Source: a bacterium (GTDB lineage Bacteria > UBA10199 > 2-02-FULL-44-16 > JAAZCA01). From it: a DNA stretch of 64,000 nt. This document shows positions 33,369 to 61,609 of the stretch, piece after piece. The stretch spans positions 96,001 through 160,000 of the forward strand of contig CAXXGI010000003.1 in the NCBI GenBank assembly GCA_963674695.2, read 5' to 3'. A program made the translations under genes and the position numbers. Within the stretch, counting starts at the first letter, position 1, and each line of letters starts with the position of its first letter. The notes under the pieces were generated by a model. The model had not been told where the DNA came from. It made no database searches and worked only from the letters and a program-made list of their open reading frames with translations.

Positions 33369-33767
33369 ATGAAATCAAAGAGCGAATTGAGCGAGCATAT
33401 GGAGATCGTCGACGGCAACAGGCGCCAGAAGGGGCATTCCCCCCTCGAGCTCTGGGGCCGCATGCACCGTGGCGAGCGCAAGTCGCAGCGTGTCGAGCGC
33501 GCGCCCTTCGACAGCATGATGGCCGTCTTTGCCGATCGCGTGACCTATACGTTTATCCTCGAAAACGAGGTGGCATCGATTCATTTCGACCGCCGGCGCG
33601 GGGAGATCTTCTTTAAGGGCCATAATATCAGTAACATGGAGCTCACCCCCCCTCAACGCGAGGCCCTGATGCACATGGGCCAGATGCTCACGCGCGAAAC
33701 CCGCACGAAACCATTTTCTGCCGATTATGACGCAACTTTGGGTCGTCTCCTTGCCGATAATGAATAG
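33369..33767 (+). CDS. Hypothetical protein (132 aa)
   Basis: AAGGAG RBS before ATG; typical codon usage. Confidence 0.7.
   Translation: MKSKSELSEHMEIVDGNRRQKGHSPLELWGRMHRGERKSQRVERAPFDSMMAVFADRVTYTFILENEVASIHFDRRRGEIFFKGHNISNMELTPPQREALMHMGQMLTRETRTKPFSADYDATLGRLLADNE
33732..33760 (+). promoter_or_regulatory. Possible sigma28-like promoter for the 33929 ORF
   Basis: GCAACTTTG-N12-GCCGATAA in the 3' end of the upstream gene; separated from the ORF by a MITE. Confidence 0.45.
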
Positions 33768-44368: not shown

Positions 44369-46135
44369 TTACTCAAACGGGATCTTGATCACCTGTCCGC
44401 GACGCGGACGGCGGCCCACGCCGGGGTTGGCCGAGCGAATCTGGTCGACCTCCACCCGATACATCTGGGCGATGGAGAAGATCGTTTCATTGCGCCCGAC
44501 CTTGTGGGTGAGTGCACCGCGTGTGCTCTTCGGCGCACGCGAGGCCGCGGCCGCGAAGAGCGTTCCCTTGCCCTTCGGAACGCGAAGCGGATAGCCGATG
44601 GGGACCAGTTGCTTTCCCTCGATCACCGAGGCGCGCAGGCTCAAGTTGAGCTCGATGATCTCCTCCATCGGGATGCGGGCGATGCGGGCGACGTCCGGCA
44701 GGGAGATGTGATAGTCCAGGCGCGTCAGGTCGTAGCGAAGGGGCTCGTCGTAGGCAATCGGGCCGAAGTGTTCTTGGGTGTGCTCGGCCACATCGAGCGC
44801 GGCGAGGAATTCGGGAACGAAGTTGCGCGAGGCAAAGCCGTAGCTGCGGTGTTCGAAGTTCTTGATGATGTGCGCGATGTCGTTCGTGCCGTGGCGTTTG
44901 ACCGCCTGCTGCATGCGGCCGCGCCCGGTGTTATAGGCGTTGAGCGCTAAGGGCCAGGTGCCCAGCTCGTTTTCGTTGTGGCGCAAGAGCTTTGCCGCTC
45001 CGTGCGTCGCGGCGATCGGGTCATAGCGTTCATCGACCAAGGTGTTGATATTGAGATACAGCTTTCCGGTTGAACGCATGAACTGCCACAACCCCGTCGC
45101 GCCCACCGAGCTTCCCGCCCGCGGGTTGAACATCGATTCCACGAAGATGAGCCGGGTGAGTTCGCGGGGGAGTCCATACTCCTCGGTGAAGATGCGCTCG
45201 ATCTCGCCGAGCCACTGTCCGGAATAGATGAGCCCGGCGATGAATTTATCGCGTTGCCCGTATTGCGCACGCACACCGTCGTCGAGCGCGGCGCGCCGAA
45301 AGGCGTTTTTTTCATGCACGTTGGTGAAGAGCTTGCGGATGCGCCATTCCTCCTCGGTGAGCGATGAGGCCGACGGACGTTTCGAGAGCTTCATCAGCGT
45401 TTCGCTGACTTCGTCGCGGCGCTCATCGAGGCGTTTTTTTCGCCGGTGCGATTTCTCCAGATCGGTGAGCCGCACATCCCGCGTGATGTCGCTCACATCG
45501 ACCACGTCATAGACGATATCGAGATAGCGCGGGTGGTGCAGCACGATGTGATCGTTGTCGTACGTCCCGTAGATGTCGCGCCAGAAATTGACCTCGGCGG
45601 TCAGCGTGTCAGGCGGAAAGATCCACGCCTTGTGTCGGCGGCTGCTGTTGCTGTCGAGTGCGCTGGGCTCACCCCGTGCCAGGCTCGAGACGGGGTGGAC
45701 CACATGCGTGATGGCATGATCGCCGACCAGAAGCGTGTCGTCGCCGAGGAGTTCGCGCGCGAGCGCATCGTCGGCGTTGGCGTCATCCGATTCCAGTGCT
45801 GCGGTCTCCTCGTTCGGCATGCGGTCCGCGTCGGATTGATCGCCGGAACGGTGTCCGGCCCAGGCCAACTCATCCGGCTTCACACCCTTGGGGATAAATT
45901 GGGCGATGGTTCCGCTATGTGCAGGAAGGGGAGCTGTTTTTTGTGTCTCCTCCGGTTCCTCCGTGGGGAGGATGGCCGAGAGCCGCGGAGGTTGGGGAAG
46001 TTTCGGGTCGATCGCCTCCGGGCTTAACCCGGCGATGCGTCCCGGCAGCACGATCAGGGCGAAGCAGATAAACCCCGCCGCCAGACAGACCACGAGCAGG
46101 GCGTTGATGATGCGCTGTTCACGCGATCCGGTCAT
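44369..46135 (-). CDS. Membrane-anchored lytic transglycosylase (MltD-like) with LysM domain
   Basis: FVESMFNPRAGSSVGATGLWQFM, DERYDP, WPLALNAYNTG, C-terminal LysM HKVGRNETIFSIAQMY. Confidence 0.92.
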   Translation of the reverse strand: MTGSREQRIINALLVVCLAAGFICFALIVLPGRIAGLSPEAIDPKLPQPPRLSAILPTEEPEETQKTAPLPAHSGTIAQFIPKGVKPDELAWAGHRSGDQSDADRMPNEETAALESDDANADDALARELLGDDTLLVGDHAITHVVHPVSSLARGEPSALDSNSSRRHKAWIFPPDTLTAEVNFWRDIYGTYDNDHIVLHHPRYLDIVYDVVDVSDITRDVRLTDLEKSHRRKKRLDERRDEVSETLMKLSKRPSASSLTEEEWRIRKLFTNVHEKNAFRRAALDDGVRAQYGQRDKFIAGLIYSGQWLGEIERIFTEEYGLPRELTRLIFVESMFNPRAGSSVGATGLWQFMRSTGKLYLNINTLVDERYDPIAATHGAAKLLRHNENELGTWPLALNAYNTGRGRMQQAVKRHGTNDIAHIIKNFEHRSYGFASRNFVPEFLAALDVAEHTQEHFGPIAYDEPLRYDLTRLDYHISLPDVARIARIPMEEIIELNLSLRASVIEGKQLVPIGYPLRVPKGKGTLFAAAASRAPKSTRGALTHKVGRNETIFSIAQMYRVEVDQIRSANPGVGRRPRRGQVIKIPFE

Positions 46136-46150
46136 GAAAATCCTTTATTC

Positions 46151-46240
46151 GTTGTCATTCTGGGGGAAGCGAAGAATCCCCCGTTGTTCTGTTGTCATTC
46201 CCGGCCCTGTTGTCATTCCCGCGGAAGCGGGAATGACAAC
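46151..46240. repeat. REP-like cluster
   Basis: Three TTGTCATTC starts and palindrome GTTGTCATTCCCGCGGAAGCGGGAATGACAAC. Confidence 0.75.
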
Positions 46241-46260
46241 AAAAACCCATTACCCGACAA

Positions 46261-47673
46261 TCACTCGTTACGGTATTCCGTGATCGCACGCACGACCTCG
46301 AGCTGCGCGCGATGGGCGCCATCGACTCCGCGCGGCAGGCCGTTGGCGAGGATCGCAAACGCGGCGATCCTTCCATCGGCCATGGGGGCAAACCCCGCCA
46401 GCGTCGACACGCCGCCGAGCGTCCCGGTCTTGGCGCGCACCATGCCGGAGAGCTTCGGCGCGAAGGTCCAACGGCGCGTGGTGCCGTCCACGCCCACGAT
46501 CGCCAGCGATGCGGCGAGATCCGGGCCGATGCTGAAGTCGCGCCAAGCGGAGACGAGGACTTTTGTGAGCAGATTCGCCGAGACGCGCGTCTGGTCGGAG
46601 AGCCCCGAGCCGTTCTCGATGACGTAACTTCCGGGGGCCACGCCGATGCTGCGCAGATAGGAGGCGATGACCTCGACCCCCTTGCGCGTCGAGCCGGGCG
46701 CGCCCATGCGCACCGCGCCCAGGTGTTTGAGCACCTGTTCGGCGATGAAGTTGTTGGAGTACTTATTCATATTGCGAATGATCTCCGCGAGCGGATCGGA
46801 GGATTCATCGAGCAGCAGCACGCCGCCGGAGCGACGTCCTTCCGAGATGGGTCCGGAGACCTCGATGCCGTTCTGCCGGAGGATGAAGCGCAGCACCGCG
46901 CTCGCATAGGCGTTCGGCGTGGTCACGCTGCGGTAGAATCGTTTCGGTGCATGTCGCGGCGGGATGCGCCCCTTGACGGTGAGCGTTTCCCCCGTGCCAT
47001 TTTTCTTCGAGACAATCTGGATGCCGAACTTGCCGCCGGTCTTGAGCGCATTGATCACGTGAACGTAATCGACAGGCGGATCGATGGTCACGATGCCGGG
47101 CTGGCCCGAACGCGATCCGGGGCTGACCTCGACGGAAATGCCGTTGAAGTTGACCGCAAATGCCCCGGTCTGGGCGGAGTAGGCGCGGCTATCTGCACCC
47201 GCCTTGCGCGGGTAGGCGTGCGCGTCGAAGTGTCCCTCGTCGATGATGACGCCCCGGGTGATGCGGCGCACGCCTCGGTCGGCCAGATTGCGCACCATGC
47301 GCCAGAGGCGCTCGGAGGTGAGCATCGGGTCACCGCCGCCCACGACGGTGAGCGTGCCGATGGCGCCGTCGTCGCCGGGTTCGCGGTCGGCGTAGAACTT
47401 CGTGTGGAAGCGGTAGTCGGGGCCCAAGTTTGCGAGCGCCGCTGTCGCGGTGATGAGTTTGGCGCAACTGGCGGGGTTGAGCGTGAGATCCGCGTTGTGG
47501 CGCGCGATGATCTGCCCGGTTTCGGCATCGGCCACGACGATCGAGGTGCGCTCGGCATTGAACCCCGGGTGCTTCAGCGCGCGTTCGAGCGCGACGCCGG
47601 CTTCCAGTGGGGGCGCCATGGTGGTGATGACGGCGGCGATGAACAGGGCGAAAAACGTGGAAGTGTTTGACAT
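46261..47673 (-). CDS. dacB: D-alanyl-D-alanine carboxypeptidase/endopeptidase (PBP4, peptidase S13)
   Basis: PASCAKL (SxxK), GGGDP, KYSNNFIAE (SxN), NGSGLS, AKTGTL (KTG); signal peptide. Confidence 0.95.
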   Translation of the reverse strand: MSNTSTFFALFIAAVITTMAPPLEAGVALERALKHPGFNAERTSIVVADAETGQIIARHNADLTLNPASCAKLITATAALANLGPDYRFHTKFYADREPGDDGAIGTLTVVGGGDPMLTSERLWRMVRNLADRGVRRITRGVIIDEGHFDAHAYPRKAGADSRAYSAQTGAFAVNFNGISVEVSPGSRSGQPGIVTIDPPVDYVHVINALKTGGKFGIQIVSKKNGTGETLTVKGRIPPRHAPKRFYRSVTTPNAYASAVLRFILRQNGIEVSGPISEGRRSGGVLLLDESSDPLAEIIRNMNKYSNNFIAEQVLKHLGAVRMGAPGSTRKGVEVIASYLRSIGVAPGSYVIENGSGLSDQTRVSANLLTKVLVSAWRDFSIGPDLAASLAIVGVDGTTRRWTFAPKLSGMVRAKTGTLGGVSTLAGFAPMADGRIAAFAILANGLPRGVDGAHRAQLEVVRAITEYRNE

Positions 47674-47716
47674 AGCTAGAGATTCTTTATACTTCGGGTT
47701 GTCGAGTATTCCTCGA

Positions 47717-47802
47717 TTGTCATCCCGACCGGAGTGGAGGGATCCCTTGTAAACGTGAGATTCCTCCACTTACTCGCGTTGCTCGCTCGGTCGGAATGAC
47801 AA
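47717..47802. repeat. REP-like element, GTCATCCCGACCGGAG subtype
   Basis: TTGTCATCCCGACCG...CGGTCGGAATGACAA inverted ends. Confidence 0.75.
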
Positions 47803-47879
47803 AGGGCGGCCAAATGATCTGTTTCCAGAGGGCTCAACTGTTGCAGGTATTCTAATGAAAAGCGTACGTGGGGGCAAGG

Positions 47880-49457
47880 ATGATTGAGCAGTTTCGTGGG
47901 CATTGGCGCCGGACGGCGTTTGCAGGGGTTTTCATCGCGCTGTTTGTCGGCGCATCGCTGTTTTCGGCGAGCCTGGGTTGTTCCCGCAAGAAGGATGCCT
48001 CGCGCGACACGCTGCGCGTGGCCCTGCCCGCCGGTCCCGTCACGCTCGATCCGCGGCTGGCCGCCGATGCCGTGGGCGACAAGATCTCCTCCCTCATCTG
48101 CGATGGCCTCTACCGCAAGAACGATGCCCTCGAGATGGTGCCGCACCTGGCCGAGCGCGTGGAGACCCTCTCCGATACCAGCTTTCGCTTTCACCTGCGC
48201 CCGAACGTCACCTTTCACAACGGCGAAAAACTCACCGCCGAGGATGTCGTCTATACCTACACGACCATCATGGATGGCACGGTCGCCTCTCCCTATCGCA
48301 GCGGCTTCGAACGCATCGCGAAGGTCGAGGCCGAAGCGCCGCTCGTCGTGCGCCTGGATCTCAAGGAGCCGTATGCGCCGCTCTTCACCATGCTCGGGCG
48401 CGGCATCGTGTCGAAGAAGGCCGCCGAGCAGATGGGCGATGCCTTTGCCACGGCGCCCATCGGCACCGGACCCTATCGCTTCGTGCGATTCGTTACCGAC
48501 TCGGTCGTGGAACTCGCGGCCAATCCCACTTCCTTCAGCGGTGTGCCCAAAACGCCCAAGCTCCTCTTCGATATCCTCAAGGATGATAACATCCGCGTTT
48601 TGAAACTCATCAAGGGGGATGTCGACCTGGCGCAGAACGCCGTGCCGCCGGCACTCGTGGCCGAGGTGACATCGAAGCCGCATCTCAAGATGAAGACGGA
48701 TCCGAGCATCATCGTCACCTACCTGGGGCTCAACCTGACCGACCCGGTTCTCAAGAAGAAGGGCGTGCGGCAGGCGCTCGCACTCGCCATCGATCGCGAC
48801 GAAATCATCGCGCACCAGTGGAAGGGGTTTGCCTCCAAGGCCAACTCGATCCTCGCCCCCGAGAACTGGGCGTATGACAAGAGCCTCGGTCAGTATGACT
48901 ATGATCCCAAGCGGGCGGCGGCCCTCCTGGACAAGGCGGGTTTTCCCGATCCGGACGGGGCCGGCCCCAAGACGCGCTTCGACCTGGTCTATAAGACGAG
49001 CACGGCCAAAGAGCGCGTCGCCATCGCGCAGATGATCGCGCATCAGTTGGCCAAGGTCGGCATCGGTGTGCGCGTGGAGCCCTATGAGTGGGGCACCTTC
49101 TTTCGCGACATCAAGCGCGGGAACTTTCAGGTCTATTCGCTCTCCTGGGTCGGCGTGACCGAGCCGGACATCTTCTACGACATCGCGCATTCCTCGCAGA
49201 TGCCGCCCGATGGCCTCAACCGCGATCGCTATGTCAATGCCGACATCGATCGCCAGGTTTCGGCCGCGCGCGTCGAACTCGATCCGGACAAACGCCGCGC
49301 ACTCTATGCGAAGGTGCAGAGAATTCTCTTCGACGAGCTACCCTTTATTCCGCTCTGGTATGAAAACAACATCGTCCTCTTCAACGATGCGCTCGAAAAT
49401 GTGCGCCTGCGCGCCGACGCGAGCTTCGAACCGCTCGTGGAAGTCGTGAAGAAATAA
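47880..49457 (+). CDS. Peptide ABC transporter substrate-binding lipoprotein (OppA/DppA family)
   Basis: Lipobox SLGC, TLDP, FHNGEKLTAEDVVYT, PIGTGPYRF, VRQALALAIDR. Confidence 0.93.
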   Translation: MIEQFRGHWRRTAFAGVFIALFVGASLFSASLGCSRKKDASRDTLRVALPAGPVTLDPRLAADAVGDKISSLICDGLYRKNDALEMVPHLAERVETLSDTSFRFHLRPNVTFHNGEKLTAEDVVYTYTTIMDGTVASPYRSGFERIAKVEAEAPLVVRLDLKEPYAPLFTMLGRGIVSKKAAEQMGDAFATAPIGTGPYRFVRFVTDSVVELAANPTSFSGVPKTPKLLFDILKDDNIRVLKLIKGDVDLAQNAVPPALVAEVTSKPHLKMKTDPSIIVTYLGLNLTDPVLKKKGVRQALALAIDRDEIIAHQWKGFASKANSILAPENWAYDKSLGQYDYDPKRAAALLDKAGFPDPDGAGPKTRFDLVYKTSTAKERVAIAQMIAHQLAKVGIGVRVEPYEWGTFFRDIKRGNFQVYSLSWVGVTEPDIFYDIAHSSQMPPDGLNRDRYVNADIDRQVSAARVELDPDKRRALYAKVQRILFDELPFIPLWYENNIVLFNDALENVRLRADASFEPLVEVVKK

Positions 49458-49464
49458 CGAGGGG

Positions 49465-49700
49465 CTGTCATCCCCGTGAAAACGGGGATCTCGATGGACT
49501 TGGCTCTGTCATCCCCGTGAAAACGGGGATCTCGATGGACTTGGCTCTGTCATCCCCGTGAAAACGGGGATCTCGATGGACTTGGCACTGTCATCCCCGT
49601 GAAAACGGGGATCTCGATGGACTTGGCTCTGTCATCCCCGTGAAAACGGGGATCTCGATGTACCGTGAGAATCGAGATTTCCGCCTTCGCGGGAATGACA
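49465..49700. repeat. Five tandem 41-bp REP half-units followed by one inverted half-unit
   Basis: Unit CTGTCATCCCCGTGAAAACGGGGATCTCGATGGACTTGGCT at 49465, 49506, 49547, 49588 and 49629 (last one partial). Confidence 0.92.
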
Positions 49701-49735
49701 AAAACAGAAAGTACAAGTTACGAGTTACGGCCTTT

Positions 49736-50653
49736 ATGTTTCAATACATCATCAAACGATTGTTTGCGGCAATTCCAGTTCTGTTGGCGGTCTCCACGAT
49801 CGTCTTCCTGCTCATCCATGCCATCCCCGGCGATCCGGTCGACCTGATCCTGGGCGAGCAGGCGCTCTCGGCCGACCGCACGCAGCTCGCGCACGAGTTG
49901 CACCTGGATGAGCCGCTCATCGACCAGTATGGCCATTTCTTGGCGGGGCTCGTCTCGGGCAACTGGGGCCAATCGCTCTTCGACAAACGCTCGGTCCTCT
50001 CCCACATCCACGATCGCTACGCCGCCACGCTGCTGCTCGCCGTCTGCGCCATGTGCGTGGCCATCGCGGTGGCCATCCCCGCCGGCATCTTCGCGGCCGT
50101 GCGTCGCGGAAGCATCTGGGATCAGATCACCATGTTCGTGGCGCTCTGGGGGATCTCCGTCCCCAACTTCTGGCTCGGTCCCGTGCTCATCCTTATCTTT
50201 GCCGTATACCTGGGATGGCTGCCCATCTCCGGGCGCGAGTCGCTCGCTTCGCTCATCCTTCCGTCGATCACGTTGGGCGCGGCGCTCGCCGCGATGCTCT
50301 CGCGGCTCACGCGCGCCTCCATGATCGAAGAGATCAAGCGCGAGTACGTCGTGGCTGCGCGGGCCAAGGGCCTTTCTGAACGACGCGTCATCTTCAAGCA
50401 CGCGTTGCGCAATGCGCTCAATCCGGTGATCACGATCATAGGACTCCAGGTCGGTTCCTTGCTGGCGGGAACGATCATCACCGAGAAGGTCTTCAACTGG
50501 CCCGGGATCGGCTCGCTCCTGCTCGACTCGATCAGTCGGCGCGATTATCCCCTGGTGCAAGGGTGTATCCTGGTCATCGCGTTCGCGTACGTCCTGGTGA
50601 ACACCGCAACCGACTGCCTCTATCGGGCGGTGGATCCGAGGGTGAAACTGTAA
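49736..50653 (+). CDS. Peptide ABC transporter permease (OppB/DppB family)
   Basis: IPGDPV, SVPNFWLG, EYVVAARAKGL, KHALRNA, EKVFNWPGIG, RDYPLVQG. Confidence 0.95.
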   Translation: MFQYIIKRLFAAIPVLLAVSTIVFLLIHAIPGDPVDLILGEQALSADRTQLAHELHLDEPLIDQYGHFLAGLVSGNWGQSLFDKRSVLSHIHDRYAATLLLAVCAMCVAIAVAIPAGIFAAVRRGSIWDQITMFVALWGISVPNFWLGPVLILIFAVYLGWLPISGRESLASLILPSITLGAALAAMLSRLTRASMIEEIKREYVVAARAKGLSERRVIFKHALRNALNPVITIIGLQVGSLLAGTIITEKVFNWPGIGSLLLDSISRRDYPLVQGCILVIAFAYVLVNTATDCLYRAVDPRVKL

Positions 50654-50693
50654 CGGCCGTGACACGTAACACGTAACACGATGGACTCGGAAG

Positions 50694-50829
50694 TGTCATC
50701 CCCGTGAAAACGGGGATCTCGATGGATTCGGAAGTGTCATCCTCGTGCAAACGGGGATCTCGATGTGCCGTGAGAATCGAGATTCCCGCCTTCGCGGGAA
50801 TGACAGGCTTGGGTTCGCGGGAATGACAA
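50694..50829. repeat. REP cluster (two tandem half-units plus inverted halves)
   Basis: Same 41-bp period and GTGAGAATCGAGATT spacer as 49465-49700. Confidence 0.85.
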
Positions 50830-50854
50830 CGATCAAACGGAAACGAAAAAGGGC

Positions 50855-51658
50855 ATGAAAAGCATTACCGCAAAAATCGGGATGGGGTTGGTGGCGATGA
50901 TGCTCGTCATGGCGCTGGCTGCGCCGTGGCTGGCACCGCACGATCCGCAGACCTATCATGTCGATCTCGCGTTTGCCGGGCCGTCGGCCGAATATCCGCT
51001 GGGCAACGACGCCGACGGGCGCGACATCCTCTCGCGCATCATCTACGGTTCGCGCGTCTCCCTCGGCATCGGGCTGGCGGTGGTCGTTGTCTCGCTCTGT
51101 GTCGGCACGATCATCGGACTCTTCGCCGGCTATTGGGGTGGGTTCACCGATCGGATCTTTCAGTTCGTCTCCGATGTCTTCCTCGCCTTTCCCGGTTTTC
51201 TCTTCGCCATCGCGGTGGCCGCCTTCCTGCGTCCGGCCGTGATCAACGTGGTGATCATCCTCTGCATCAAGGGCTGGGTGACCTACGCGCGACTCGTGCG
51301 CGGCCAGACGCTTTCCCTCAAGGAGCGCGAGTTCGTTCAGGCCGGGCGCGCCATCGGCGTGCGCATCCCTCGGCTCTTCGTGCGCCACCTCTTTCCCAAC
51401 ATGGTCGGGCCCGTGGTCGTCGCCGCCAGCTTCGGCATGGCCGGCGTCATCATCATCGAATCGTCGCTCTCCTTTCTGGGTCTCGGTGTTCCGGTCACCA
51501 CGCCTTCCTGGGGCGGCATGATCGATCAGGGGACGCAATACCTGCTCATCGCACCGCACCTGTCGATCTTCCCCGGCATCGCCATCATGATGATCGTGCT
51601 CGGCTTCAACTTCCTGGGCGACGGCCTGCGCGACAAACTCGCGCCGAGAGGGCGGTAA
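50855..51658 (+). CDS. Peptide ABC transporter permease (OppC/DppC family)
   Basis: LGNDADGRDILSRIIYGSRVSL, ARLVRG, ESSLSFLGLG, FNFLGDGLRD. Confidence 0.95.
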   Translation: MKSITAKIGMGLVAMMLVMALAAPWLAPHDPQTYHVDLAFAGPSAEYPLGNDADGRDILSRIIYGSRVSLGIGLAVVVVSLCVGTIIGLFAGYWGGFTDRIFQFVSDVFLAFPGFLFAIAVAAFLRPAVINVVIILCIKGWVTYARLVRGQTLSLKEREFVQAGRAIGVRIPRLFVRHLFPNMVGPVVVAASFGMAGVIIIESSLSFLGLGVPVTTPSWGGMIDQGTQYLLIAPHLSIFPGIAIMMIVLGFNFLGDGLRDKLAPRGR

Positions 51659-51698
51659 GGGCCGTAACACGTGATCAGAACGGTTCATCTGTTTTGTC

Positions 51699-51865
51699 TG
51701 TCACTCCCGAGGCCCCCTTGCCTGTGGGGTAATCGGGGATCCAGCCCGTTGTTGTCATCCTCGCGAAAGCGGGGATCTCGATGGGTTGTGAAAGTCGAGA
51801 TTCCCGCCTTCGCGGGAATGACACCCCTTGGTTTTGTCATCCCGAGCGGAGCCGAGGGATCCCTT
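51699..51865. repeat. REP cluster (mixed subtypes)
   Basis: TGTCATCCTCGCGAAAGCGGGGATCTCG...GCGGGAATGACA plus GTCATCCCGAGCGGAGCCGAGGGATC. Confidence 0.8.
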
Positions 51866-51886
51866 GTGAAGTGACACTTTTTTTGC

Positions 51887-51913
51887 GCAACTTTTTCCTC
51901 GTCGATGCGATAA
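51887..51913 (+). promoter_or_regulatory. Putative sigma28-like promoter
   Basis: GCAACTTTT-N10-TGCGATAA, 7 nt before ATG 51921. Confidence 0.6.
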
Positions 51914-51920
51914 CTGAGCA

Positions 51921-54692
51921 ATGGTTTATGCACCCGCCCCCACAACACTCGCTTCTCGCATGCACGCGATGGACGCCTTTCTCTCGAGCGCGGATGCGTA
52001 TGCCTTCGACCAGTCCTGGAGTGCGGTGGAAGAGGTCGTGCTCGCGCCCTTCGGTATCGAGACCGATGCCTTCGTTTCCCCCGTCTCGGATGATGTCGTC
52101 GATCGCGATCGCTTGAAGGCGCAGGTCGTGCGCGCCGTTCGTCCCGAGTTCGATAGCCGCATCGCTGGCATCGTCGAGGCGCGCGAACCGCTCGATCTCG
52201 ACCGTCTGTATCACCACGGTTTTGCCGGACCCTCGCACGCGGTCTTCTCGGCCGATCATGCCTATGCTGGGCGGTGGCTCTCCTTCGATCCGGCCAAGAG
52301 CATGATCGCTTCCGTGCTCATGCTGACGAAGAACATTCCTCCGCTCTATGCAGACCTCCTTCAGCGATGGGGGACGAGAGGACTCGATGGATTTCGTTCG
52401 ACCCATCACCCGATCGATGAGCTGCGCATTCAACACGAGATCGATCGGCTGCGGGCGATGCCGCGCCCCTTCGCCGAACGGACGCTGCGATACGTCTCGC
52501 CCCATACGCTTGCGCGCATCATCGAGCAGCTCGCCCAGGGCTTGGGCCTCGTCCATCCGCGTCAACTGAGTGGAGAAGATTTCAAAGTGAAGCTCCCCGG
52601 ATGGCGAACGGCCTGCCAAGGGCTCTACAAATATGGACTCAAGCTCGCTTCCGAAGAGGAGGGATCGCAGCAGGCGATCGACTGCCTGCTCGATCATCTC
52701 GACATGCAGCGGCTCGATGGGCTTCCCTTTCTGGATCAGGTGCGCATCCTGCGCATGCGTTCCTCGCGCATCTATTGGGATCGCGTGCCGCGGGGCCTCA
52801 AGCGCTATCTCATCGAGCGGCTCGCCACAGAGGCGGGCGTCGTCCATCCGCGCTTTCTGACGGCGCCGCAGATGATCAAGGTCGAGATCCCCGAACTCGG
52901 GTCAACGCTCTACACGCTCTACGACAACATGCTCAAGCGCACCACTGAACATGGGCGTGCGGTCGAAGCCCTCCTCGATGAACTGGGATTCGATTCCATT
53001 GAAGACCTCGATTGGGAGGTGCAGCTCAAGGGATTCAAGGAGCGCAGTCTGGTGCACTGGGGCGTCGTGCCCACATCGACGCAGCGAAAACTCTTGGAGG
53101 TGGCGCGTGCGCGCATGCCGAAACAGAACGGCATGGAGTGCCCGCACCTGCGGGCGTTGACCAGCGACCAGCTTAAGCGGAGCGTGATCGAAGAGATCGA
53201 CGTCGCCCTCGGCGGCTTGCACGAACACTATCGCGTCCGCGTGCCGGAAGGATATGCGGGGACGACCATCGATTGCATGCTCGATGAACTCGGCGTGCCG
53301 GCCTTTGCCGATCTCTCCTACGAGGAGCAGTGCCGTTGTCTGCGCTACGACAAAAGCTGGCCCTGGGATCGGGTGCCCAAATCGACGATACGGGAGATGA
53401 TCGAGCGGATTCAGAAACGTCATGATCTTCCCCATATTCGATATGTCACCCCCGAACACCTGAGAACGACGATCCTCCCCGAGATCGACCAATCCATCGG
53501 TGGCCTCTATACTCATTTTCAGCTGCGGCAGAACGTGACCGATCATCGGCCGGTCATGGACCTGATCTTCGATCATATCGGTGTGGAACCATTCGAAGAT
53601 ATGCCCTTTGACCTGCAGTTGGAATGGATGAACCATTCGGCCGGGCGCGCGTGGCGAGATATTCCCGATGCGATCATTCACCATCACCTTCGGGCGCTGA
53701 TGCGGACGAGTGGCGTTGCGGAACCCGGCGATCTGCTGACGAGTCATTTCGGTCGTCCGGTGCTGACGCGACAGGCCGGGATGCTGGGCCTGCTCACCTA
53801 TCTGAACCATGTGTGGAAAGACTCCGATCGCAGCGAGCGCGTCATCGACTGGGCCGCCCGCCGCTATGGGCTCCATACCCAGATGGGGATCGACGCCAAG
53901 TTTCGACAGGGGGGGCAGCTGCTCCAGTTGGATGAGACGCAGCATTTGATTCAGATGGCAAGGGTGGGCGATCGGCGCGCGCAGGAGCAACTCATCATCT
54001 TCTTCCATCCGCTCATCAAGAAGTTTGCGGCGGCCACGCTCAGCCGACAATCCCATTCCCGCCTGGGATTCGATGATCTGGTGCAGCTCGGGCGCCTGGA
54101 GCTCATGCAGTTGGCCAAGCTCTATGACCCAACACGAGGGGCCAAGTTTACGACCTATGTCTATTCATCGCTCCCCTGGCGCATGATGAATGCCGTGAAG
54201 CGCGACACCGGCGTGATCCATCGTCCGGCGCATTATCTGGCGGCTGCGGCAAAGCTCTTCAAAAAGCGTGCGCAATTGATTCAGGAATTCGGGGTTGAGC
54301 CGAGCGATGAGGAGCTGGCCCAGGCGCTCGGATGGACGCTCGATGAGGTGAAAGAGATTTTCCGCCATGCCTCGCGGGAGGTCTCGATTCACTCGCCCGT
54401 GGGCGAGGACGATTCGACGCTCGAGGACTTTATCCCGGATACGGCCAATGATATCGAAGCCTCGTTCGAGAATCGCAACCTGCAGTCACAGCTGCATGTG
54501 GCCATCGAGGGGTCGGGGTTGAATGAACGAGAACGCTTCTGTCTGCGAAAATATCACCTGGAGGGTCACACGCTTGAGGAGGTGGGCCAGATGTGGGGAG
54601 TCACCCGCGAGCGCATCCGGCAGATCGTGGTGAAGGCCATGCAAAAAATCGCGAACGGTCCCTATGCCAAGGCCTTGAAGGAGTTGTTATAG
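51921..54692 (+). CDS. Giant sigma70-family protein: ~95-aa tandem repeats plus C-terminal sigma regions 2-4
   Basis: DLVQLGRLEL...YDPTRGAKFTTY (r2), EPSDEELAQALG...SIHSPVGEDDSTLEDFIPD (r3), TLEEVGQMWGVTRERIRQI (r4); repeats start with W-x-x-V/I-P. Confidence 0.88.
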   Translation: MVYAPAPTTLASRMHAMDAFLSSADAYAFDQSWSAVEEVVLAPFGIETDAFVSPVSDDVVDRDRLKAQVVRAVRPEFDSRIAGIVEAREPLDLDRLYHHGFAGPSHAVFSADHAYAGRWLSFDPAKSMIASVLMLTKNIPPLYADLLQRWGTRGLDGFRSTHHPIDELRIQHEIDRLRAMPRPFAERTLRYVSPHTLARIIEQLAQGLGLVHPRQLSGEDFKVKLPGWRTACQGLYKYGLKLASEEEGSQQAIDCLLDHLDMQRLDGLPFLDQVRILRMRSSRIYWDRVPRGLKRYLIERLATEAGVVHPRFLTAPQMIKVEIPELGSTLYTLYDNMLKRTTEHGRAVEALLDELGFDSIEDLDWEVQLKGFKERSLVHWGVVPTSTQRKLLEVARARMPKQNGMECPHLRALTSDQLKRSVIEEIDVALGGLHEHYRVRVPEGYAGTTIDCMLDELGVPAFADLSYEEQCRCLRYDKSWPWDRVPKSTIREMIERIQKRHDLPHIRYVTPEHLRTTILPEIDQSIGGLYTHFQLRQNVTDHRPVMDLIFDHIGVEPFEDMPFDLQLEWMNHSAGRAWRDIPDAIIHHHLRALMRTSGVAEPGDLLTSHFGRPVLTRQAGMLGLLTYLNHVWKDSDRSERVIDWAARRYGLHTQMGIDAKFRQGGQLLQLDETQHLIQMARVGDRRAQEQLIIFFHPLIKKFAAATLSRQSHSRLGFDDLVQLGRLELMQLAKLYDPTRGAKFTTYVYSSLPWRMMNAVKRDTGVIHRPAHYLAAAAKLFKKRAQLIQEFGVEPSDEELAQALGWTLDEVKEIFRHASREVSIHSPVGEDDSTLEDFIPDTANDIEASFENRNLQSQLHVAIEGSGLNERERFCLRKYHLEGHTLEEVGQMWGVTRERIRQIVVKAMQKIANGPYAKALKELL

Positions 54693-54719
54693 GCGGTCAC
54701 CCCCGAATCTCTCCTTGTT

Positions 54720-54835
54720 TGTCATCCCTGAGTGGGGTAATCGGGGATCTCGATTGCTTATGAAATTCGAGATTCCCGCCTTCGCGGGAATGACACCCCT
54801 TGGTTTTGTCATCCCGAGCGGAGTCGAGGGATCTC
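54720..54835. repeat. REP cluster nearly identical in layout to 51752-51865
   Basis: Shared string GAGATTCCCGCCTTCGCGGGAATGACACCCCTTGGTTTTGTCATCCCGAGCGGAG. Confidence 0.85.
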
Positions 54836-54855
54836 TTGTTCTCGAAGGAGTTTCT

Positions 54856-55911
54856 ATGTCACTCGGACAACTGTTAATGATCGGTTTCGACGGCACGACG
54901 GTTTCACCGGAACTCGCTGCGCTTATGCGCGACGTGCAGCCGGGCGGCGTGATCCTCTTTGCGCGCAATTGCGAGAGTCCCGAACAGGTGCGCACCCTCA
55001 TCGCCGACCTCACCGATGCGGCCGAGGCACCGTTGATCGTCGGCGTCGACCAGGAGGGCGGGCGTGTGGCGCGGTTGAAAGCTCCCTTCACCGAGCTGCC
55101 ACCGATGAACCGCATCGCGCGTGCCGGGAGCGATGCGCGCGAACTCGCGCGCGAGGTCGGCGCGATGCTGGCGCGCGAACTCGCTGCGGTCGGCTTTACG
55201 CTCGACTTCGCCCCCGTGCTCGACGTGAACACCAATGCACAAAACCCCGTCATCAACGACCGCGCCTTCTCCGCCGATGCACAGGTGGTCGCGCGACTCG
55301 GCTGCGCCTTCATCGAGGGCATGCAGGGAGAAGGGGTTGCCGCCTGTGGCAAGCACTTCCCGGGACACGGCGATACCACCATCGATTCGCACAAAGGCCT
55401 GCCGCGCGTCGAACATGCGCGCGAGCGCCTCGGTTCCACCGAACTCGTGCCCTTTCGTGCTGCCATCGCGGCCAGCGTCGCCTCCCTCATGACCGCACAC
55501 CTGCTCGTCACCGCGTATGATGAGCAGGATCTCGCCACGACATCGAGTGCCATCACGACCGGTCTCTTGCGTAAGGCCCTCGGTTTTGAGGGGCTCGTCT
55601 TCACCGACGACCTCATCATGCGCGGCATCGCCGACCGCTACGGAACGGAGGAATCCGCCTGGCGCGCCATCGCCGCCGGCGCCGACGTGGCGCTCGTCTG
55701 CGAGGGCGAGACGAACGTGCGCCAAGCACTCGATGGACTCGCGCGCGCCCTCGACGACGGCAAACTCGATGGCGAACACATCGCCGCATCGCGCGTGCGC
55801 ATCGCACGCTTCACCGACCGCTTCTGCAACCCAAACCGCATGCGTCCCCCCATGACCATCATCGGCTGCCCCGAACACCAAACCCTCGCAAAACGCCTGC
55901 ACGAGCTGTAA
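54856..55911 (+). CDS. nagZ: Beta-N-acetylhexosaminidase (GH3)
   Basis: GGVILFARN, VDQEGGRVAR, FAPVLDV, KHFPGHGDTTIDSH, FTDDLIM. Confidence 0.95.
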   Translation: MSLGQLLMIGFDGTTVSPELAALMRDVQPGGVILFARNCESPEQVRTLIADLTDAAEAPLIVGVDQEGGRVARLKAPFTELPPMNRIARAGSDARELAREVGAMLARELAAVGFTLDFAPVLDVNTNAQNPVINDRAFSADAQVVARLGCAFIEGMQGEGVAACGKHFPGHGDTTIDSHKGLPRVEHARERLGSTELVPFRAAIAASVASLMTAHLLVTAYDEQDLATTSSAITTGLLRKALGFEGLVFTDDLIMRGIADRYGTEESAWRAIAAGADVALVCEGETNVRQALDGLARALDDGKLDGEHIAASRVRIARFTDRFCNPNRMRPPMTIIGCPEHQTLAKRLHEL

Positions 55912-56717: not shown

Positions 56718-57884
56718 ATGACGAAGGTTGGTTCACATCATGCGGATGGCTGGCAGAAAAAGACCGGTCAGAAGCAGATCCACGAGCAGGGCCAGAAACA
56801 GGTCCGCACGGATGTGAAGCTCTCGGCCAAGCAGACCTCTCAGGCCCTGGCCCGTGAGCTGCACCAGCCCAAGTCGACCGACGGGGCCAGCCGCATGCGC
56901 GAGCAGGCGCAGCCGCAGTCCGGGCGCGATGTGTCGCAGCCGATGCAGAAGCAGCGCGGCGAGATGCAGCAGAAGGCCGCCAACGCGCAGACCAAGGAGT
57001 TTGTCGGCGCCAAGCGCGATGCGCAGCAGCTCTCGAACCTCGTCAAGTCGCCGGCCAAGGGCGCGGCCACGAAGGATGCGGTGGCACAGAAGGGGGTCGC
57101 CAGCGAGCCGAACCTGGGCAAGCAGAATGCCGGTACGAAGAATCAGCCGCAGGTCCTGCAGAAGAACGTGAACCAGGCGGTGCGCCAGCAGTCACAGCAG
57201 GTCGCGGCCAAGCATGTGGTCACGCAGCACAAGGCGCGCGCGACGACGCCGCAGGCCAAGACGACCAAGCAGGCCAAACAGGCCAAACAATTGACCGAAC
57301 AGCCCAAGCCCGATGGCGCGCAACAGGCGCGCTATGCCCCACGCGCAGCAGCGCAGGCGGGACAAGCCGGAAAGATGGGGCAACAGGACGGGCAGGGCGC
57401 GGTCAAGCAGCGCAGCGCAAGCAAAGGGGAGAAGAAGAAGGGCGAGAAAAAATCGAGTGCTTCGCGCGGCAGGGGGGCATCGGCGACCGGCGCCGAGCGG
57501 GCCGGGGCGCAACGCGACCTGGGCGCGCTCCTCGGTGGCGGTGGTTTTGGGGGCGACGGCGACGAGGGGTTTGAATCCTTTAGCGGCAATGCCTCCATCG
57601 AGGGCGATGGCGTCGAAGGATCCAAGGGCCTGCCCGAGTCCGATCCGGCCTCACCGGTCTTTAACGAGCCGTCAGCTGGCGACGCCGTCATGGGACGCGC
57701 GCGTCTCTACGGCCGCCTCGTGGAAAAGCGCATCCAGGAGATCGCGCAGCTCAACGACGAGATCGAGACCAAAATTAAAACCATGTTCGAGACGACGCCG
57801 CTTCGCGAACGCATCGTTTCGGAATGTGAAACCTTGAGCCAAGCCGTCGTGCTCGGCTCCTACAAGGATATCCGTTATGGGTAA
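56718..57884 (+). CDS. Gln/Lys/Ala-rich low-complexity hypothetical protein (388 aa)
   Basis: AGGAG RBS, strongly GC3-biased codons; overlaps next gene by 8 nt. Confidence 0.8.
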   Translation: MTKVGSHHADGWQKKTGQKQIHEQGQKQVRTDVKLSAKQTSQALARELHQPKSTDGASRMREQAQPQSGRDVSQPMQKQRGEMQQKAANAQTKEFVGAKRDAQQLSNLVKSPAKGAATKDAVAQKGVASEPNLGKQNAGTKNQPQVLQKNVNQAVRQQSQQVAAKHVVTQHKARATTPQAKTTKQAKQAKQLTEQPKPDGAQQARYAPRAAAQAGQAGKMGQQDGQGAVKQRSASKGEKKKGEKKSSASRGRGASATGAERAGAQRDLGALLGGGGFGGDGDEGFESFSGNASIEGDGVEGSKGLPESDPASPVFNEPSAGDAVMGRARLYGRLVEKRIQEIAQLNDEIETKIKTMFETTPLRERIVSECETLSQAVVLGSYKDIRYG

Positions 57885-60800
57885 TAATCCGCTGGGTATT
57901 AACAATTTTCAGCTCAGGCCCTTCGAGGAGTCGCTGAGGAATACGCTCTACGGCGAGAAGGCGAAGGCCAACACCCCTTCCGAAGAGAGCAATGGTTTCG
58001 ACTGCTCCGGATCGCGCGCGTTTTTGCAGAACATGGGTATCATGGGCGGGCAGAACTTTCAGATGAACGGCCTGCACGGTCAGGATCCTTCGAACGAATG
58101 GTTCCCGGGACGAAAAGGGCAGCAGCAGCTTCCCGGCGGTGCCGGCATCATGGGTGCGAACGTCTTCGGCAACATGGGCATGCCCAACTACGCGCAGGCC
58201 TTCCTCGGCGGTCAGGGCGGCAATGCGCTCATGTCCGGCGGGATGATGGCCGGTGGCCTCGGCGCACCGCAAATTATCCAGACGCCGATGCCGCAGCCCG
58301 CGCAGGGGAGCATCACGCCTCAGCCCTCCTCCCTCAATTTCACGGCGAAGGAGGCCGACCCCGAGGATGAGAAAGACGCCAAGGCGCTCGAGGATGCGCG
58401 CAATGCCTACGCCGATCTGCAGAAGGACTGGGAGCGTCGCGCGGGCGATAAGGATGAGTACGGCTATTCCGGTGATGAGGCCAAGGAGTTCGTGGAGCGT
58501 GCCGCCGGTGCGGCGCTCGAGCGCGCCCAGAAGATCGTCGGCGACGGCGACGAAAAGGCGCTCATCATCCAGCAGCACAAGATCTTCGACGGCATCATGA
58601 AAAAACTGCCGAGTTTCACGCTGCCCGAACCGAGTGCGGAACAGGTGGCCGCTTGGGAGAAGGATGGGCTTGATGTGGAGGCCGAGACAACGAAGATGCA
58701 GGATGCGCACAGGGAGGAATGGACCACCGACTTGACCAAGTGGGAGGTCGAGCAGATTGAGGACTACAACGCCATCGACGGCAACAAAGCCGTGAAAGCC
58801 GTCCGCCAGAGCGCAATGGATCCGGACACGAGCGTGAAGAAGAAGGCGGAGCCGATTGAGGTGGAGGTAAAACGGAGCAAAGGATGGGGCAAGAAGGTGA
58901 GCGAACCATCCTATATCATTACGAAGGCGCCGGAGGGTTCGGGGCTTAAAGGAGGAGACTATGTCTTCTACAAGGCTGATGGGACCTGGGTCAAAGCATC
59001 GAGTAATGACAGTACAACAGCAAGGATTGGAACCGAGATCGAGGTGCTCAAAGATTCTCCGAAACCGTCAACAGATCCGAATGCAACGGCTACACTGAAA
59101 ATGGAAGGCCCCGAAGAAGAGGCCGCCGACACCAACACGGATTCCTACTTCGACGTTGAGTATGCGGGAGTGCGAGAGATCGTGGTGGAGGAAGGTGGCA
59201 AGAAACGCACGGTGCAGGCCGAGGTCTACACCGTGACGGGTGGAATGCTTGCGTCGGGGAAACCTGTTGATCCGAAATCGGTGAATGATGAGGTCTATAA
59301 GGTGGATGGGAAGTGGTATGCAGATCCTGTAACTCGTCCGGATGTGAATACGATCAAACCGTTCTCCGAGTCCGATCCGGATTCCCCCACGCCCAAACAC
59401 GCCGCCAACGAGGGTCGCCTCTACTTCAACCGCGCCTCCGCACGCCACCTCCCCGAGGGCGCCATGTACAAGGACGTGCGCGGCCACATCGACACCGCCC
59501 TCCAAGGTCTCGAAAAGGAAGCCGCCGAAAAGAAAAAGATCCGCCAGGACCGTTACAAGGTCTTCGAGGAACAGTTCAAGGAGTCCCTGCCTGAGGATGT
59601 GCAAGACCTCGTCACCGTCAAGATGGATGACGACGGCACCGTCCAAATCACCTGCTCGCCCGAACACGCAGCGCAGGTCCACACGGCGATGAAACGCGAG
59701 GGTGAAGTGGATGCGCTCGAAAAGATGACATGTACACTCACAAAGGATGGCAAGCCGGATGGTGTGGTGACGAAGTACATATTGAGTCCCGTCCCCAGCA
59801 GTGGTCCGTTGGAGGGCACGAAGTACCTCTATTATGATACAGAAAGTGAAGCGTGGTTTACGGATGCAGATGCGTTACTTGATGTTGCTGACCTGGATGT
59901 AAAGATTCCGAAGATGGGGGAGGAAGCAAAGACCTCTGTCTCCTTTGATGTCGACACAAAGGGAGAGACACTCAAGCCCGTCGATAACAAAAAGATGAAA
60001 TCCGCCTTCGCGGCTCTTCCGGACAAGACGCCCGTTCGCTTCAACGACGAGCTGATGACTCCGGGTGCCGATCCCAAGGCGGCGCTTGCCAAGGAGGCGC
60101 ACGAAGCGCCCCGGGTGATTCATATTGATAGTGAGGCGATGGATAGTGGGTTGAAGGCTGCGAAGAAACCAGATGCAATTGGGAAGGTACTCGCGTTAGC
60201 TGTTGATGATGCAAAAGGCGACGCAAAAAACCTCGAGAGCATCAACCTCGGCACGATCGCACTCCCCACGAAGAAGGACGGGGGTGTGATCACGCAGAGC
60301 GAGTTTGAGGGGATCATCGCCAAGATCGCGAAGGAACACGACATCAATCCTTCGCAGGTGAAATATACGATCAAGGACAAAACTGCCTTCAAGAAGGCGG
60401 AGGCACCCACTGGTGAGATGCTCACCACCAGTGGCGCTGATTTCGGCGATGGCGTGAAGGTCGACTGGAAGCTCCCTGTTGAAACGCAGAAGGCGTTTGA
60501 GAAGGATTATGGAAAGATACAGAAGGACGCCGATGCGCGGTTTAAGGAGATGAAGGCCGATGCGAAGAACCCGAGCCCCGAAAAAATCGTCGAGCTGAAA
60601 AAGCGCGCGACCGTCGAAGCGATCACGATGTGGGCCTACACCTATGCCAAGGAGCGCGGATGGGAAGGACATGAAGACAACGAGGGCGAAGCGCTCTCCC
60701 TCTATGATAACCTGAGTTCCGACAAACCCCTGGGCGAATGCACCGAGCGCACCGCGTTTCTCTATGCCCTCATGAAGCACGCGCAGGAGGAAGGTGTGTT

Positions 60801-61347
60801 ACAGAAAGATCTCGAGGGGGTAGACTTCAAATTCGCCAACGTGACGCGTGTGAATACACAGCTCGCCGTGCACAAAGACGCCAAGCACGTCGCACTCGTG
60901 GCCACAGGTGCGGGTGATGATATGCTCTGCGATATCGCGACACCCTACAAGACGGGCTGGGGTCTGGGCAGTCCGGATGTGACGCCCGATGGACATACGC
61001 TTGATAAGAAGAATCCGACGATGTCGGCCGGTGAGTTTGCTGCAGTTCAGCTCTACAACAAGGCCCTCATCGCACAGGCCAAAGGGGAGGACCCTGCCGA
61101 GGTGGAGCGCTATCACCGCATGGCCCATGCCCTGTCTCCGGATATCGTTCCGGAGGATATGCCCGGCTCCGACAAGAAGGCCGCAGCGGCGATCACCAAC
61201 GGCGTCAGCGATGTCGACGACGATGCCGATGCATCGGCATCGAAGAAGAAACCATCCGCCGCCGAAAGCGACCGCATCCCCGCACCCCCGGGCTTTCAAT
61301 ACAACGACGCCGGCCAACTCATAAAAATCCGCCGCCTCGACGTCTAG
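57877..61347 (+). CDS. Large hypothetical protein (1156 aa) with C-terminal transglutaminase-like domain and TPR-like helix pair
   Basis: LGECTERTAFLYALMKHA...KHVALV...LCDIA; LYNKALIAQAKGEDPAEVERYHRMAHALSPD. Confidence 0.8.
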   Translation: MGNNPLGINNFQLRPFEESLRNTLYGEKAKANTPSEESNGFDCSGSRAFLQNMGIMGGQNFQMNGLHGQDPSNEWFPGRKGQQQLPGGAGIMGANVFGNMGMPNYAQAFLGGQGGNALMSGGMMAGGLGAPQIIQTPMPQPAQGSITPQPSSLNFTAKEADPEDEKDAKALEDARNAYADLQKDWERRAGDKDEYGYSGDEAKEFVERAAGAALERAQKIVGDGDEKALIIQQHKIFDGIMKKLPSFTLPEPSAEQVAAWEKDGLDVEAETTKMQDAHREEWTTDLTKWEVEQIEDYNAIDGNKAVKAVRQSAMDPDTSVKKKAEPIEVEVKRSKGWGKKVSEPSYIITKAPEGSGLKGGDYVFYKADGTWVKASSNDSTTARIGTEIEVLKDSPKPSTDPNATATLKMEGPEEEAADTNTDSYFDVEYAGVREIVVEEGGKKRTVQAEVYTVTGGMLASGKPVDPKSVNDEVYKVDGKWYADPVTRPDVNTIKPFSESDPDSPTPKHAANEGRLYFNRASARHLPEGAMYKDVRGHIDTALQGLEKEAAEKKKIRQDRYKVFEEQFKESLPEDVQDLVTVKMDDDGTVQITCSPEHAAQVHTAMKREGEVDALEKMTCTLTKDGKPDGVVTKYILSPVPSSGPLEGTKYLYYDTESEAWFTDADALLDVADLDVKIPKMGEEAKTSVSFDVDTKGETLKPVDNKKMKSAFAALPDKTPVRFNDELMTPGADPKAALAKEAHEAPRVIHIDSEAMDSGLKAAKKPDAIGKVLALAVDDAKGDAKNLESINLGTIALPTKKDGGVITQSEFEGIIAKIAKEHDINPSQVKYTIKDKTAFKKAEAPTGEMLTTSGADFGDGVKVDWKLPVETQKAFEKDYGKIQKDADARFKEMKADAKNPSPEKIVELKKRATVEAITMWAYTYAKERGWEGHEDNEGEALSLYDNLSSDKPLGECTERTAFLYALMKHAQEEGVLQKDLEGVDFKFANVTRVNTQLAVHKDAKHVALVATGAGDDMLCDIATPYKTGWGLGSPDVTPDGHTLDKKNPTMSAGEFAAVQLYNKALIAQAKGEDPAEVERYHRMAHALSPDIVPEDMPGSDKKAAAAITNGVSDVDDDADASASKKKPSAAESDRIPAPPGFQYNDAGQLIKIRRLDV

Positions 61348-61535: not shown

Positions 61536-61581
61536 TAACCCGTTGATTTACAAGGGTGTGTGCATTGGCCTGTTTCTTGCT
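61536..61581 (+). promoter_or_regulatory. Putative IHF site plus sigma54 promoter of the transposase
   Basis: TAACCCGTTGATT (YAA-N4-TTGATW) at 61536; TGGCCTGTTTCTTGCT (GG-N10-GC) at 61566. Confidence 0.55.
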
Positions 61582-61609
61582 TTTGTCAGCGCGTATGAAA
61601 GGAGGAGGG

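Follow-up and report, generated by a model that had tools for sequence, protein, structure and literature searches.

A giant sigma-70-family protein with an arm of five repeated helical domains in a UBA10199 bacterium

Most often, a sigma factor is controlled by a separate anti-sigma protein or by a short domain appended to it. We describe here a rare, very large sigma factor that carries within itself a complete array of five domains. It is encoded in a window of 64,000 nucleotides (positions 96,001–160,000 of contig CAXXGI010000003.1, assembly GCA_963674695.2; GTDB lineage Bacteria; UBA10199; 2-02-FULL-44-16; JAAZCA01), where the gene of this giant sigma occupies positions 51921–54692 of the forward strand (923 aa; stop codon included; a single open reading frame [ORF] without internal stops). 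The front two-thirds of the protein are five copies of an undescribed helical domain.

Among described systems, the group 1/2 sigma factors RpoD/SigA and RpoS have regions 1.2, 2, 3.0–3.2, and 4 in the same order as the giant sigma. The RpoD of the same genome, a canonical copy encoded elsewhere (C2:625562), shares the 4.2 recognition helix with the giant sigma residue for residue and resembles it in the C-terminal tail. However, the giant sigma reached 124–125 bits against RpoD equivalogs (cut-offs: 354–572 bits; RpoD_Cterm: 124 vs. 354) and 105.8 bits against the RpoS equivalog (cut-off: 378.7 bits). Unlike RpoD, it lacks region 1.1 and an RpoD-type N-terminus, and unlike the group 1/2 sigma factors it has SS instead of WW at the Trp dyad, a region 3 that is optional in its family, and a 670-aa arm. 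FliA/WhiG are, like the giant sigma, three-domain alternative sigma factors without the Trp dyad, and a further link is the sigma-28-type promoter in front of the giant sigma gene. Nonetheless, its scores with the FliA/WhiG models were 93–100 bits (cut-offs: 189.6–201 bits), its identity to the FliA-like sigma of the genome is 22%, its 4.2 helix is RpoD-like rather than FliA-like, and it is a target of the regulon of the FliA-like sigma, not the sigma of that regulon. MzaA of the MZA anti-phage system (~700 aa) also joins an uncharacterised N-terminal part to a C-terminal sigma-70 module, but its match to the giant sigma is restricted to the sigma part (PADLOC: positions 449–657 of 683, E 1.8e-13; NCBIfam: 89.4 bits vs. 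cut-off 800), and the neighbouring genes that were scanned gave peptide-transport, cell-wall, or no Pfam matches, with no Mza-specific model applied. Based on domain criteria (Pfam, NCBIfam TIGR02937), the giant sigma is a member of the sigma-70 family, and based on curated thresholds it falls outside the RpoD, RpoS, FliA, and MzaA families.

The sigma module and integrity of the gene

The sigma module consists of regions 1.2 and 2 (aa 674–762; 53940–54206, +), region 3, identified by Pfam, with the 3.2 finger motif (aa 763–845; 54207–54455, +), and region 4 (aa 846–923; 54456–54689, +), which contains the 4.2 helix VTRERIRQI and a family-specific C-terminal tail (GPYA..LKELL). Pfam matches exceeded their cut-offs for Sigma70_r2 (aa 697–755; 28.2 vs. 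24 bits), Sigma70_r3 (aa 781–843; 59.5 vs. 25.3 bits), and Sigma70_r4 (aa 866–910; 55.1 vs. 24.1 bits), and the sigma-70 superfamily model TIGR02937 (74.2 vs. 42.9 bits) was the only NCBIfam model passed. The sigma2 and sigma4 folds were both recognised, and the closest structural matches of the module were SigA and RpoS domains. Compared with the other sigma factors of the genome, the module is most similar to RpoD (34% identity, over the C-terminal 250 aa), followed by the RpoH-like (23%) and FliA-like (22%) sigma factors. Region 2.2 and the start of region 3.0 track RpoD closely, and the 4.2 helix (GVTRERIRQI in the giant sigma) carries the same VTRERIRQI, in agreement with an earlier note, made from this DNA alone, that had read regions 2 and 3 and an RpoD-type 4.2 helix here. 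Region 2.3 reads KFTTYVYSSLPW, and the aligned positions of the RpoD are KFSTYATWWIRQ.

All seven members of the clade, among them four that have no sigma3, retain the 3.2 finger motif, and finger residues S822, P826, T833, and E835 are invariant in the seven-member alignment. In the least diverged pair (dS 0.75), dN/dS was 0.20 for sigma2, 0.27 for sigma4, 0.24 for repeats R1–R4, 0.22 for repeat R5, 0.17 for the head, and 0.49 for aa 1–73. These ratios indicate that sigma2, sigma4, and the repeats are under purifying selection.

The gene is intact, and an artefact can be dismissed: positions 51822–54796, which include the whole gene, are covered without a difference by one 2975-nt contig of a public run, and contig pieces from a second public sample are concordant with the gene sequence. 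The ends of the 2975-nt contig lie inside a 101-nt direct repeat that flanks the gene (upstream copy: 51767–51867, no strand assigned; partner: 54739–54839, 93% identity), and both flanking repeats are copies of an element dispersed genome-wide. Summed contig depth in the public runs was in the hundreds over the 101-nt repeats vs. ~9 over the giant sigma gene. The runs aligned here are of DNA-type contigs, and no RNA run was listed among the public runs that contain the gene. The dispersed 101-nt element fragments the assemblies of these runs. Such breakage of short-read contigs by the flanking copies could favour an artefact (of assembly, frameshift, or fusion) or a decaying pseudogene, and we give that explanation a negligible probability. 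The contig that covers the ORF without a difference, the agreeing pieces from the second sample, and the open frames of six full-length homologues, found in five further genomes of this order, all speak against an artefact, and dN/dS well under 1 in each domain speaks against a pseudogene. The fusion, which the earlier note had wanted checked in relatives, is genuine, as shown by the single contig and by an architecture common to the six homologues.

An arm of helical repeats and its family

The arm was divided into R1 (aa 190–285; 52488–52775), R2 (aa 286–379, 94 aa; 52776–53057), R3 (aa 380–481, 102 aa with a 6-aa insertion and a Cys triad; 53058–53363), R4 (aa 482–577, 96 aa; 53364–53651), and R5 (aa 578–673; 53652–53939), all on the forward strand. 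R1–R4 are supported by pairwise scores and a hidden Markov model (HMM), with an AlphaFold2 model for R4, and R5 by HMM and hhalign. All six Smith-Waterman pairs among R1–R4 were significant (z 7.7 to 25.9; 0/300 shuffles as high for every pair). The degenerate R5, in which about the first 75 unit positions are recognisable, gave no significant pairwise score against R1–R4 (z −0.4 to 2.2), but the R1–R4 HMM built from seven family members found it in register in 7/7 proteins (i-E 2e-6 to 0.04; positions 1 to ~75), and hhalign matched the R1–R4 profile to an R5 alignment of 17 rows over 72 columns (probability 97.5%, E 8.6e-12). The array is therefore composed of four well-kept units and one diverged, shortened fifth. 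The earlier note had proposed about five ~95-aa repeats, with periods of 94, 102, and 96 aa, and ~660 aa ahead of the sigma domain. The repeats lie where it had placed them and with these periods, Pfam boundaries put the preceding part at ~670 aa, and of the five repeats four stand on pairwise evidence whereas the fifth is recovered by profile only.

The consensus of 28 R1–R4 units from seven members (W..VP, PH.R, GLY, LD.LG, and Q) agrees with the shared pattern that had been noticed in the window protein, and unit positions H24, R26, and Q85 are invariant in 28/28 copies. R3 contains a cluster of C407, C471, and C473 next to the repeat-invariant His (H409). Among 17 family members from both lineages, C407 is retained in 15, C471 in 17, and C473 in 16, vs. 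only 1–4 members for each of the four remaining Cys of the window protein. Because every repeat position is individually conserved, the array is a fixed scaffold rather than an expandable one.

AlphaFold2 predicted R4 (alignment of 28 rows) as a five-helix domain with high confidence (pLDDT 91.5, pTM 0.81). Comparison with known helical or HTH repeat folds (TetR-N, winged helix/LOTUS, XRE) by structural superposition of one repeat gave no firm assignment. With Foldseek, the R4 model matched nothing in either database searched, its best E being 2.5 against the PDB and 1.7 against BFVD. Pfam gave nothing in the N-terminal ~670 aa at E ≤ 1 for the whole protein and just eight one-off chance matches at E ≤ 10 for 28 single repeats, a PDB sequence profile search with the repeat reached a best E of 0.052, and a search of the ESM Atlas gave no usable match. 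These Pfam, PDB profile, and ESM Atlas searches ruled out a known repeat family. An origin of the repeats from sigma domains, the head, or the RpoD N-terminus was likewise rejected (hhalign probabilities 0.1–0.2%); the earlier note had held that a match to a known sigma N-terminal family would overturn its description, and no likeness to the RpoD N-terminus and no Pfam match in the arm were found. Its remark that the architecture was unrecognised is borne out by the blank Pfam result, the lack of a solved-fold match for the modelled repeat, and the search listings and abstracts returned by full-text literature searches, in which we found no account of a giant sigma of this kind.

Ahead of the arm lies a head of 189 aa with two parts. 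The poorly conserved N-terminus (aa 1–73; 51921–52139, +) is acidic, K/R-poor, and rich in A, S, T, P, and G (mean pairwise identity 0.24 in seven members), although AlphaFold2 placed confident helices, not disorder, at aa 10–41. The LAS(R/Q) motif at aa 10–13 is conserved, which supports the ATG at 51921 as the start codon. The second part (aa 74–189; 52140–52487, +) is a clade-specific helical head with a pairwise identity of 0.51 among family members, most of which is missing from 10 outgroup proteins. It includes a pre-repeat helix (aa ~160–180) common to the window protein and to the Margulisbacteria-type homologues described below, which lack about the first 145 residues of the window protein. 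We found no second copy of the head in the genome, no stand-alone homologue among proteins of 103–331 aa (the length range of the head-alone search), and no profile likeness between the head and the repeat unit (hhalign).

The family is small. When aa 1–660 were searched by word index against 5.8 billion proteins, only three relatives beyond the window protein came up, and a search of genome contigs gave no loci with a single-protein query vs. three loci with an alignment query. Within the small phylum, repeats were found in 6/93 genomes and 4/73 genera, and all carriers belong to one order (6/22 genomes). With a profile of 28 repeats searched against 1.84 billion representatives, 58 proteins were found at E ≤ 1e-3 (33 at E ≤ 1e-10 and 20 at E ≤ 1e-30), of which 46 were scanned with Pfam (all except the window protein, one protein of 6478 aa, and P0053–P0062). 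Among the 46, C-terminal sigma-70 domains are present in 11 and C-terminal AAA_11/AAA_12 superfamily 1 (SF1) helicase domains in six, 24 have no Pfam match, and five have partial or low-complexity matches only. Where sources were named, they were metagenome-assembled genomes of Candidatus Margulisiibacteriota, candidate division WOR-1, and Candidatus Saganbacteria, and the source annotations read "sigma-70 family RNA polymerase sigma factor", "AAA family ATPase", or "hypothetical" only. The Margulisbacteria-type sigma proteins (~730–800 aa) have four-plus-one repeats and a short pre-repeat helix, as in the window protein, and more distant profile matches are arrays of the ~75-aa core of the unit. 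At locus L012, in one related genome, two giant-sigma paralogues (7254–9998 and 9998–12763; 65% identical) stand head to tail, one with sigma region 3 and the other without; this tandem pair is L007/L011.

Because the array is also fused to SF1 helicases, a pairing brought to light by the search for repeat fusions that the earlier note had suggested, it is an autonomous module. The arm-fused helicases are of the AAA_11/AAA_12 type (Upf1/Dna2-like), not UvrD-like. HelD and PcrA/UvrD, which are RNA-polymerase-associated SF1 helicases, set a precedent for a dedicated polymerase-interaction domain, and no resemblance of the arm to any HelD or PcrA domain was seen in sequence or fold.

A sigma-28-type promoter and its regulon

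A sigma-28-type promoter, CAACTTTT-N10-TGCGATAA, lies at 51888–51913 (+). Because it ends 7 nt before the ATG, the giant sigma mRNA is probably leaderless or nearly so. The genome contains 33 sites of the form AACTTT-N13-CGATAA, all with the same spacing, vs. none for the reversed control, and the position weight matrix (PWM) score of the giant sigma site (32.3) is within the range of the other sites (27.0–38.7). The −10 half of this motif is the sigma-28 consensus. Further sites in the window are at 1276–1300 (+), 33734–33759 (+), 32151–32176 (−), and 32623–32648 (−), and at 30/33 sites of the genome the start of an ORF of ≥ 100 aa follows within 200 nt. In the order, the motif was counted 7–44 times per genome in 22/22 genomes (reversed control: 0–1), and a FliA-like sigma factor (60–76% identical) is encoded in 21/22, the remaining genome being 78% complete. 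The FliA-like sigma of the present genome scores 132.7 bits, under the FliA/WhiG cut-off of 189.6. Because 16 of the 22 genomes have no giant sigma yet contain the motif, the motif belongs to the FliA-like sigma and not to the giant sigma. Within 300 nt upstream of the six homologues no motif was found (best PWM −5.7 to −14.2 vs. ≥ 27 for true sites), and a regex scan upstream of the homologues was likewise negative, so the sigma-28-type wiring of the giant sigma is specific to this genome. The earlier note had placed the gene under an "orphan-regulon" promoter and had considered autoregulation. The promoter-like site is present, the regulon is not an orphan, given the FliA-like sigma in 21/22 genomes, and autoregulation is not supported, in view of the 16 motif-bearing genomes without a giant sigma and the missing motif upstream of the six homologues. 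What had seemed an orphan promoter in the window is explained by a sigma-28-type regulon, here in a bacterium that is not flagellated but has a type III system: no flagellin was found in the genome, and its single FHIPEP protein passes the SctV (hrcV) equivalog (793.7 vs. 692 bits) and fails the FlhA cut-off.

This regulon drives mostly orphan and eukaryote-like (SET, HEAT) proteins. Of 20 of the 30 downstream ORFs that were scanned with Pfam, 15 had no match, and the matched ORFs were a GH77 4-alpha-glucanotransferase, an alpha-amylase/CBM48 protein, a HEAT-repeat protein, a SET-domain protein, and a C25 peptidase. In their first 50 aa, the 30 regulon proteins differ from 2186 background ORFs in K+R (3.6 vs. 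5.8; p 1e-4), net charge (−3.0 vs. +0.35; p 1.6e-5), and ASTPG content (20.6 vs. 17.0; p 7e-6), a comparison that uses rough ORF and start calls and shows resemblance only. The N-terminus of the giant sigma conforms to this profile (first 50 aa: K+R 1, D+E 7, ASTPG 23).

Around the giant sigma, the interval 44369–55911 contains cell-wall turnover genes, which encode an SLT-LysM transglycosylase, a carboxypeptidase (S13 D-Ala-D-Ala), a peptide transporter of the Dpp type, and a NagZ-like enzyme of family GH3. A gene for NamZ (15944–17452) is located ~3 kb downstream in L013. A link to peptidoglycan recycling through these NagZ and NamZ genes was rejected, because it is not kept in L012 or L014. 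Two arrays of a 41-nt unit (49465–49660, 4.8 copies; 50679–50765, 2.1 copies) are located between the peptide-transporter genes, and arrays of 9-nt and 8-nt units occur at 12487–12688, 15655–15746, and 28287–28543. Downstream of the giant sigma are two adjacent ORFs without Pfam matches (56718–57884, 388 aa, rich in Q, A, and K; 57877–61347, 1156 aa; both +) and, ~7 kb downstream, an IS200-like (Y1 transposase) gene (61556–62278, +). Elsewhere in the window, a 1256-aa fusion (37304–41077, −) combines CheB methylesterase, CheR methyltransferase, PAS, and histidine-kinase ATPase domains.

Possible modes of action of the giant sigma

We see about an even chance that the giant sigma works as an alternative sigma factor that descends from an RpoD/RpoS-like ancestor and has an autonomous five-domain docking or targeting arm. 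A polymerase-bound alternative sigma is the best-supported reading because the sigma folds are intact, the finger is retained, selection acts on every domain, and the architecture is conserved. We infer that the last 250 residues would bind core RNA polymerase as in a usual sigma factor, placing sigma2 at the clamp helices of beta-prime, the 3.2 finger within the active-site cleft, and sigma4 at the beta flap, and that the RpoD-identical 4.2 helix would read the −35 element in this genome. The −10 element would be read or opened otherwise than in RpoD, because region 2.3/2.4 has lost both aromatic wedge residues. The arm would be a platform whose partner, a protein or nucleic acid, sets where or when the attached enzyme acts, and the conserved Cys triad of R3 may be a metal or redox site. 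Since the same arm is attached to SF1 helicases, it is most likely an independent docking/targeting module rather than a sigma-specific inhibitor; given the HelD/PcrA precedent, docking on the transcription machinery is a possible reason why sigma factors and helicases share it. Through its sigma-28-type promoter, the giant sigma would be placed in a cascade, immediately under the order-wide FliA-like sigma.

Several observations weigh against a working sigma factor of this kind. The Trp dyad is lost, as the earlier note had read: both positions are Ser, compared to WW in the RpoD and RpoH-like sigma factors of the genome and YY in the FliA-like sigma, which makes canonical −10 melting by the giant sigma doubtful, and the dyad positions vary across the 17 family members. 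The 4.2 recognition helix is variable (VGQARVSKI in L008, VSRQRVQQI in L006) and regions 3.0–3.1 are deleted in 8/17 members, a pattern that relaxed DNA-reading would also fit, and dN/dS of 0.2–0.27 is high for a housekeeping regulator. No target promoters of the giant sigma were identified, a sigma-28-type promoter precedes only 1/7 family genes, and when the ORFs of nine loci were clustered no conserved operon partner emerged, the only family apart from the giant sigma that at least three loci share being a XerC-like recombinase (three loci). With a net charge of −4 to +2 per repeat, the arm is near-neutral and shows no sign of binding DNA.

Because both aromatics are lost, the 4.2 helix is variable, and sigma3 is optional, two other explanations stay alive. 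The giant sigma may be gated by its own arm, which would fold back on sigma2/sigma4 and keep it inactive until a signal arrives (redox or metal at the R3 Cys, or a partner). The C407/H409/C471/C473 cluster, kept in 15–17 of 17 members when the other Cys are not, is consistent with such gating, as is the direct junction of R5 with region 1.2, and no anti-sigma gene was seen adjoining any family member, the gene contexts differing among loci. We nevertheless regard this as unlikely, since the arm also occurs on SF1 helicases and so is no inhibitory domain specific to sigma factors, C471 and C473 stand two residues apart (i, i+2) within a predicted helix, where they are poorly placed to share a ligand, and the AlphaFold2 model of the whole chain (pTM 0.51) has no confident contact between arm and sigma module. 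The loss of both wedge residues from a protein with the 4.2 helix of the genome's RpoD, a sigma3 that is dispensable in the family, and a gene within a stage-type sigma-28-like regulon would suit a decoy that binds RNA polymerase without initiating, perhaps on RpoD-type −35 elements, and sequesters or parks it at a late stage. That, too, is rather improbable, because purifying selection acts on the finger and on region 2 and the variable 4.2 helices of the orthologues speak against a conserved RpoD-mimic role; moreover, many working alternative sigma factors (group 3/4) have no WW dyad, which counts against a decoy.

The setting of the gene also raises the idea, mentioned in the earlier note, that the protein acts in another cell, with the clade-specific head as a signal for type III secretion. 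The genome encodes an injectisome-type SctV and no flagellin, the promoter type is common to ~30 mostly orphan genes (including those for SET-domain, HEAT-repeat, and glycogen-enzyme proteins), the giant sigma fits the acidic, K/R-poor, and ASTPG-rich N-terminal profile of the regulon, and the head is absent from the Margulisbacteria-type homologues. Export seems very improbable to us, however, given that the composition test, made with crude calls of ORFs and starts, shows resemblance only, that no gene for a chaperone is close by, that it is not obvious what a sigma factor would act on in the cytosol of a eukaryote, that the six homologues lack the promoter link, and that the predicted N-terminus (aa 10–41) is helical and not disordered. 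A fuller version, in which the giant sigma does not serve housekeeping in its own cell but belongs to a sigma-28-controlled, type-III-linked set of late proteins, is exported through its clade-specific head, and by docking with its arm captures bacterial-type RNA polymerase in another cell (prey, a co-resident bacterium, or an organelle), has a slimmer chance still; if export and capture were true, the giant sigma would be a secreted sigma or sigma decoy.

The giant sigma carries an array whose number and order of units are conserved across two distant bacterial lineages and which is re-used on SF1 helicases. A conserved and re-used array of this kind points to an unrecognised way of steering nucleic-acid enzymes. 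The ligand of the arm, once found, would define a new protein domain family and could reveal how transcription is started by a sigma factor without the canonical DNA-opening residues.

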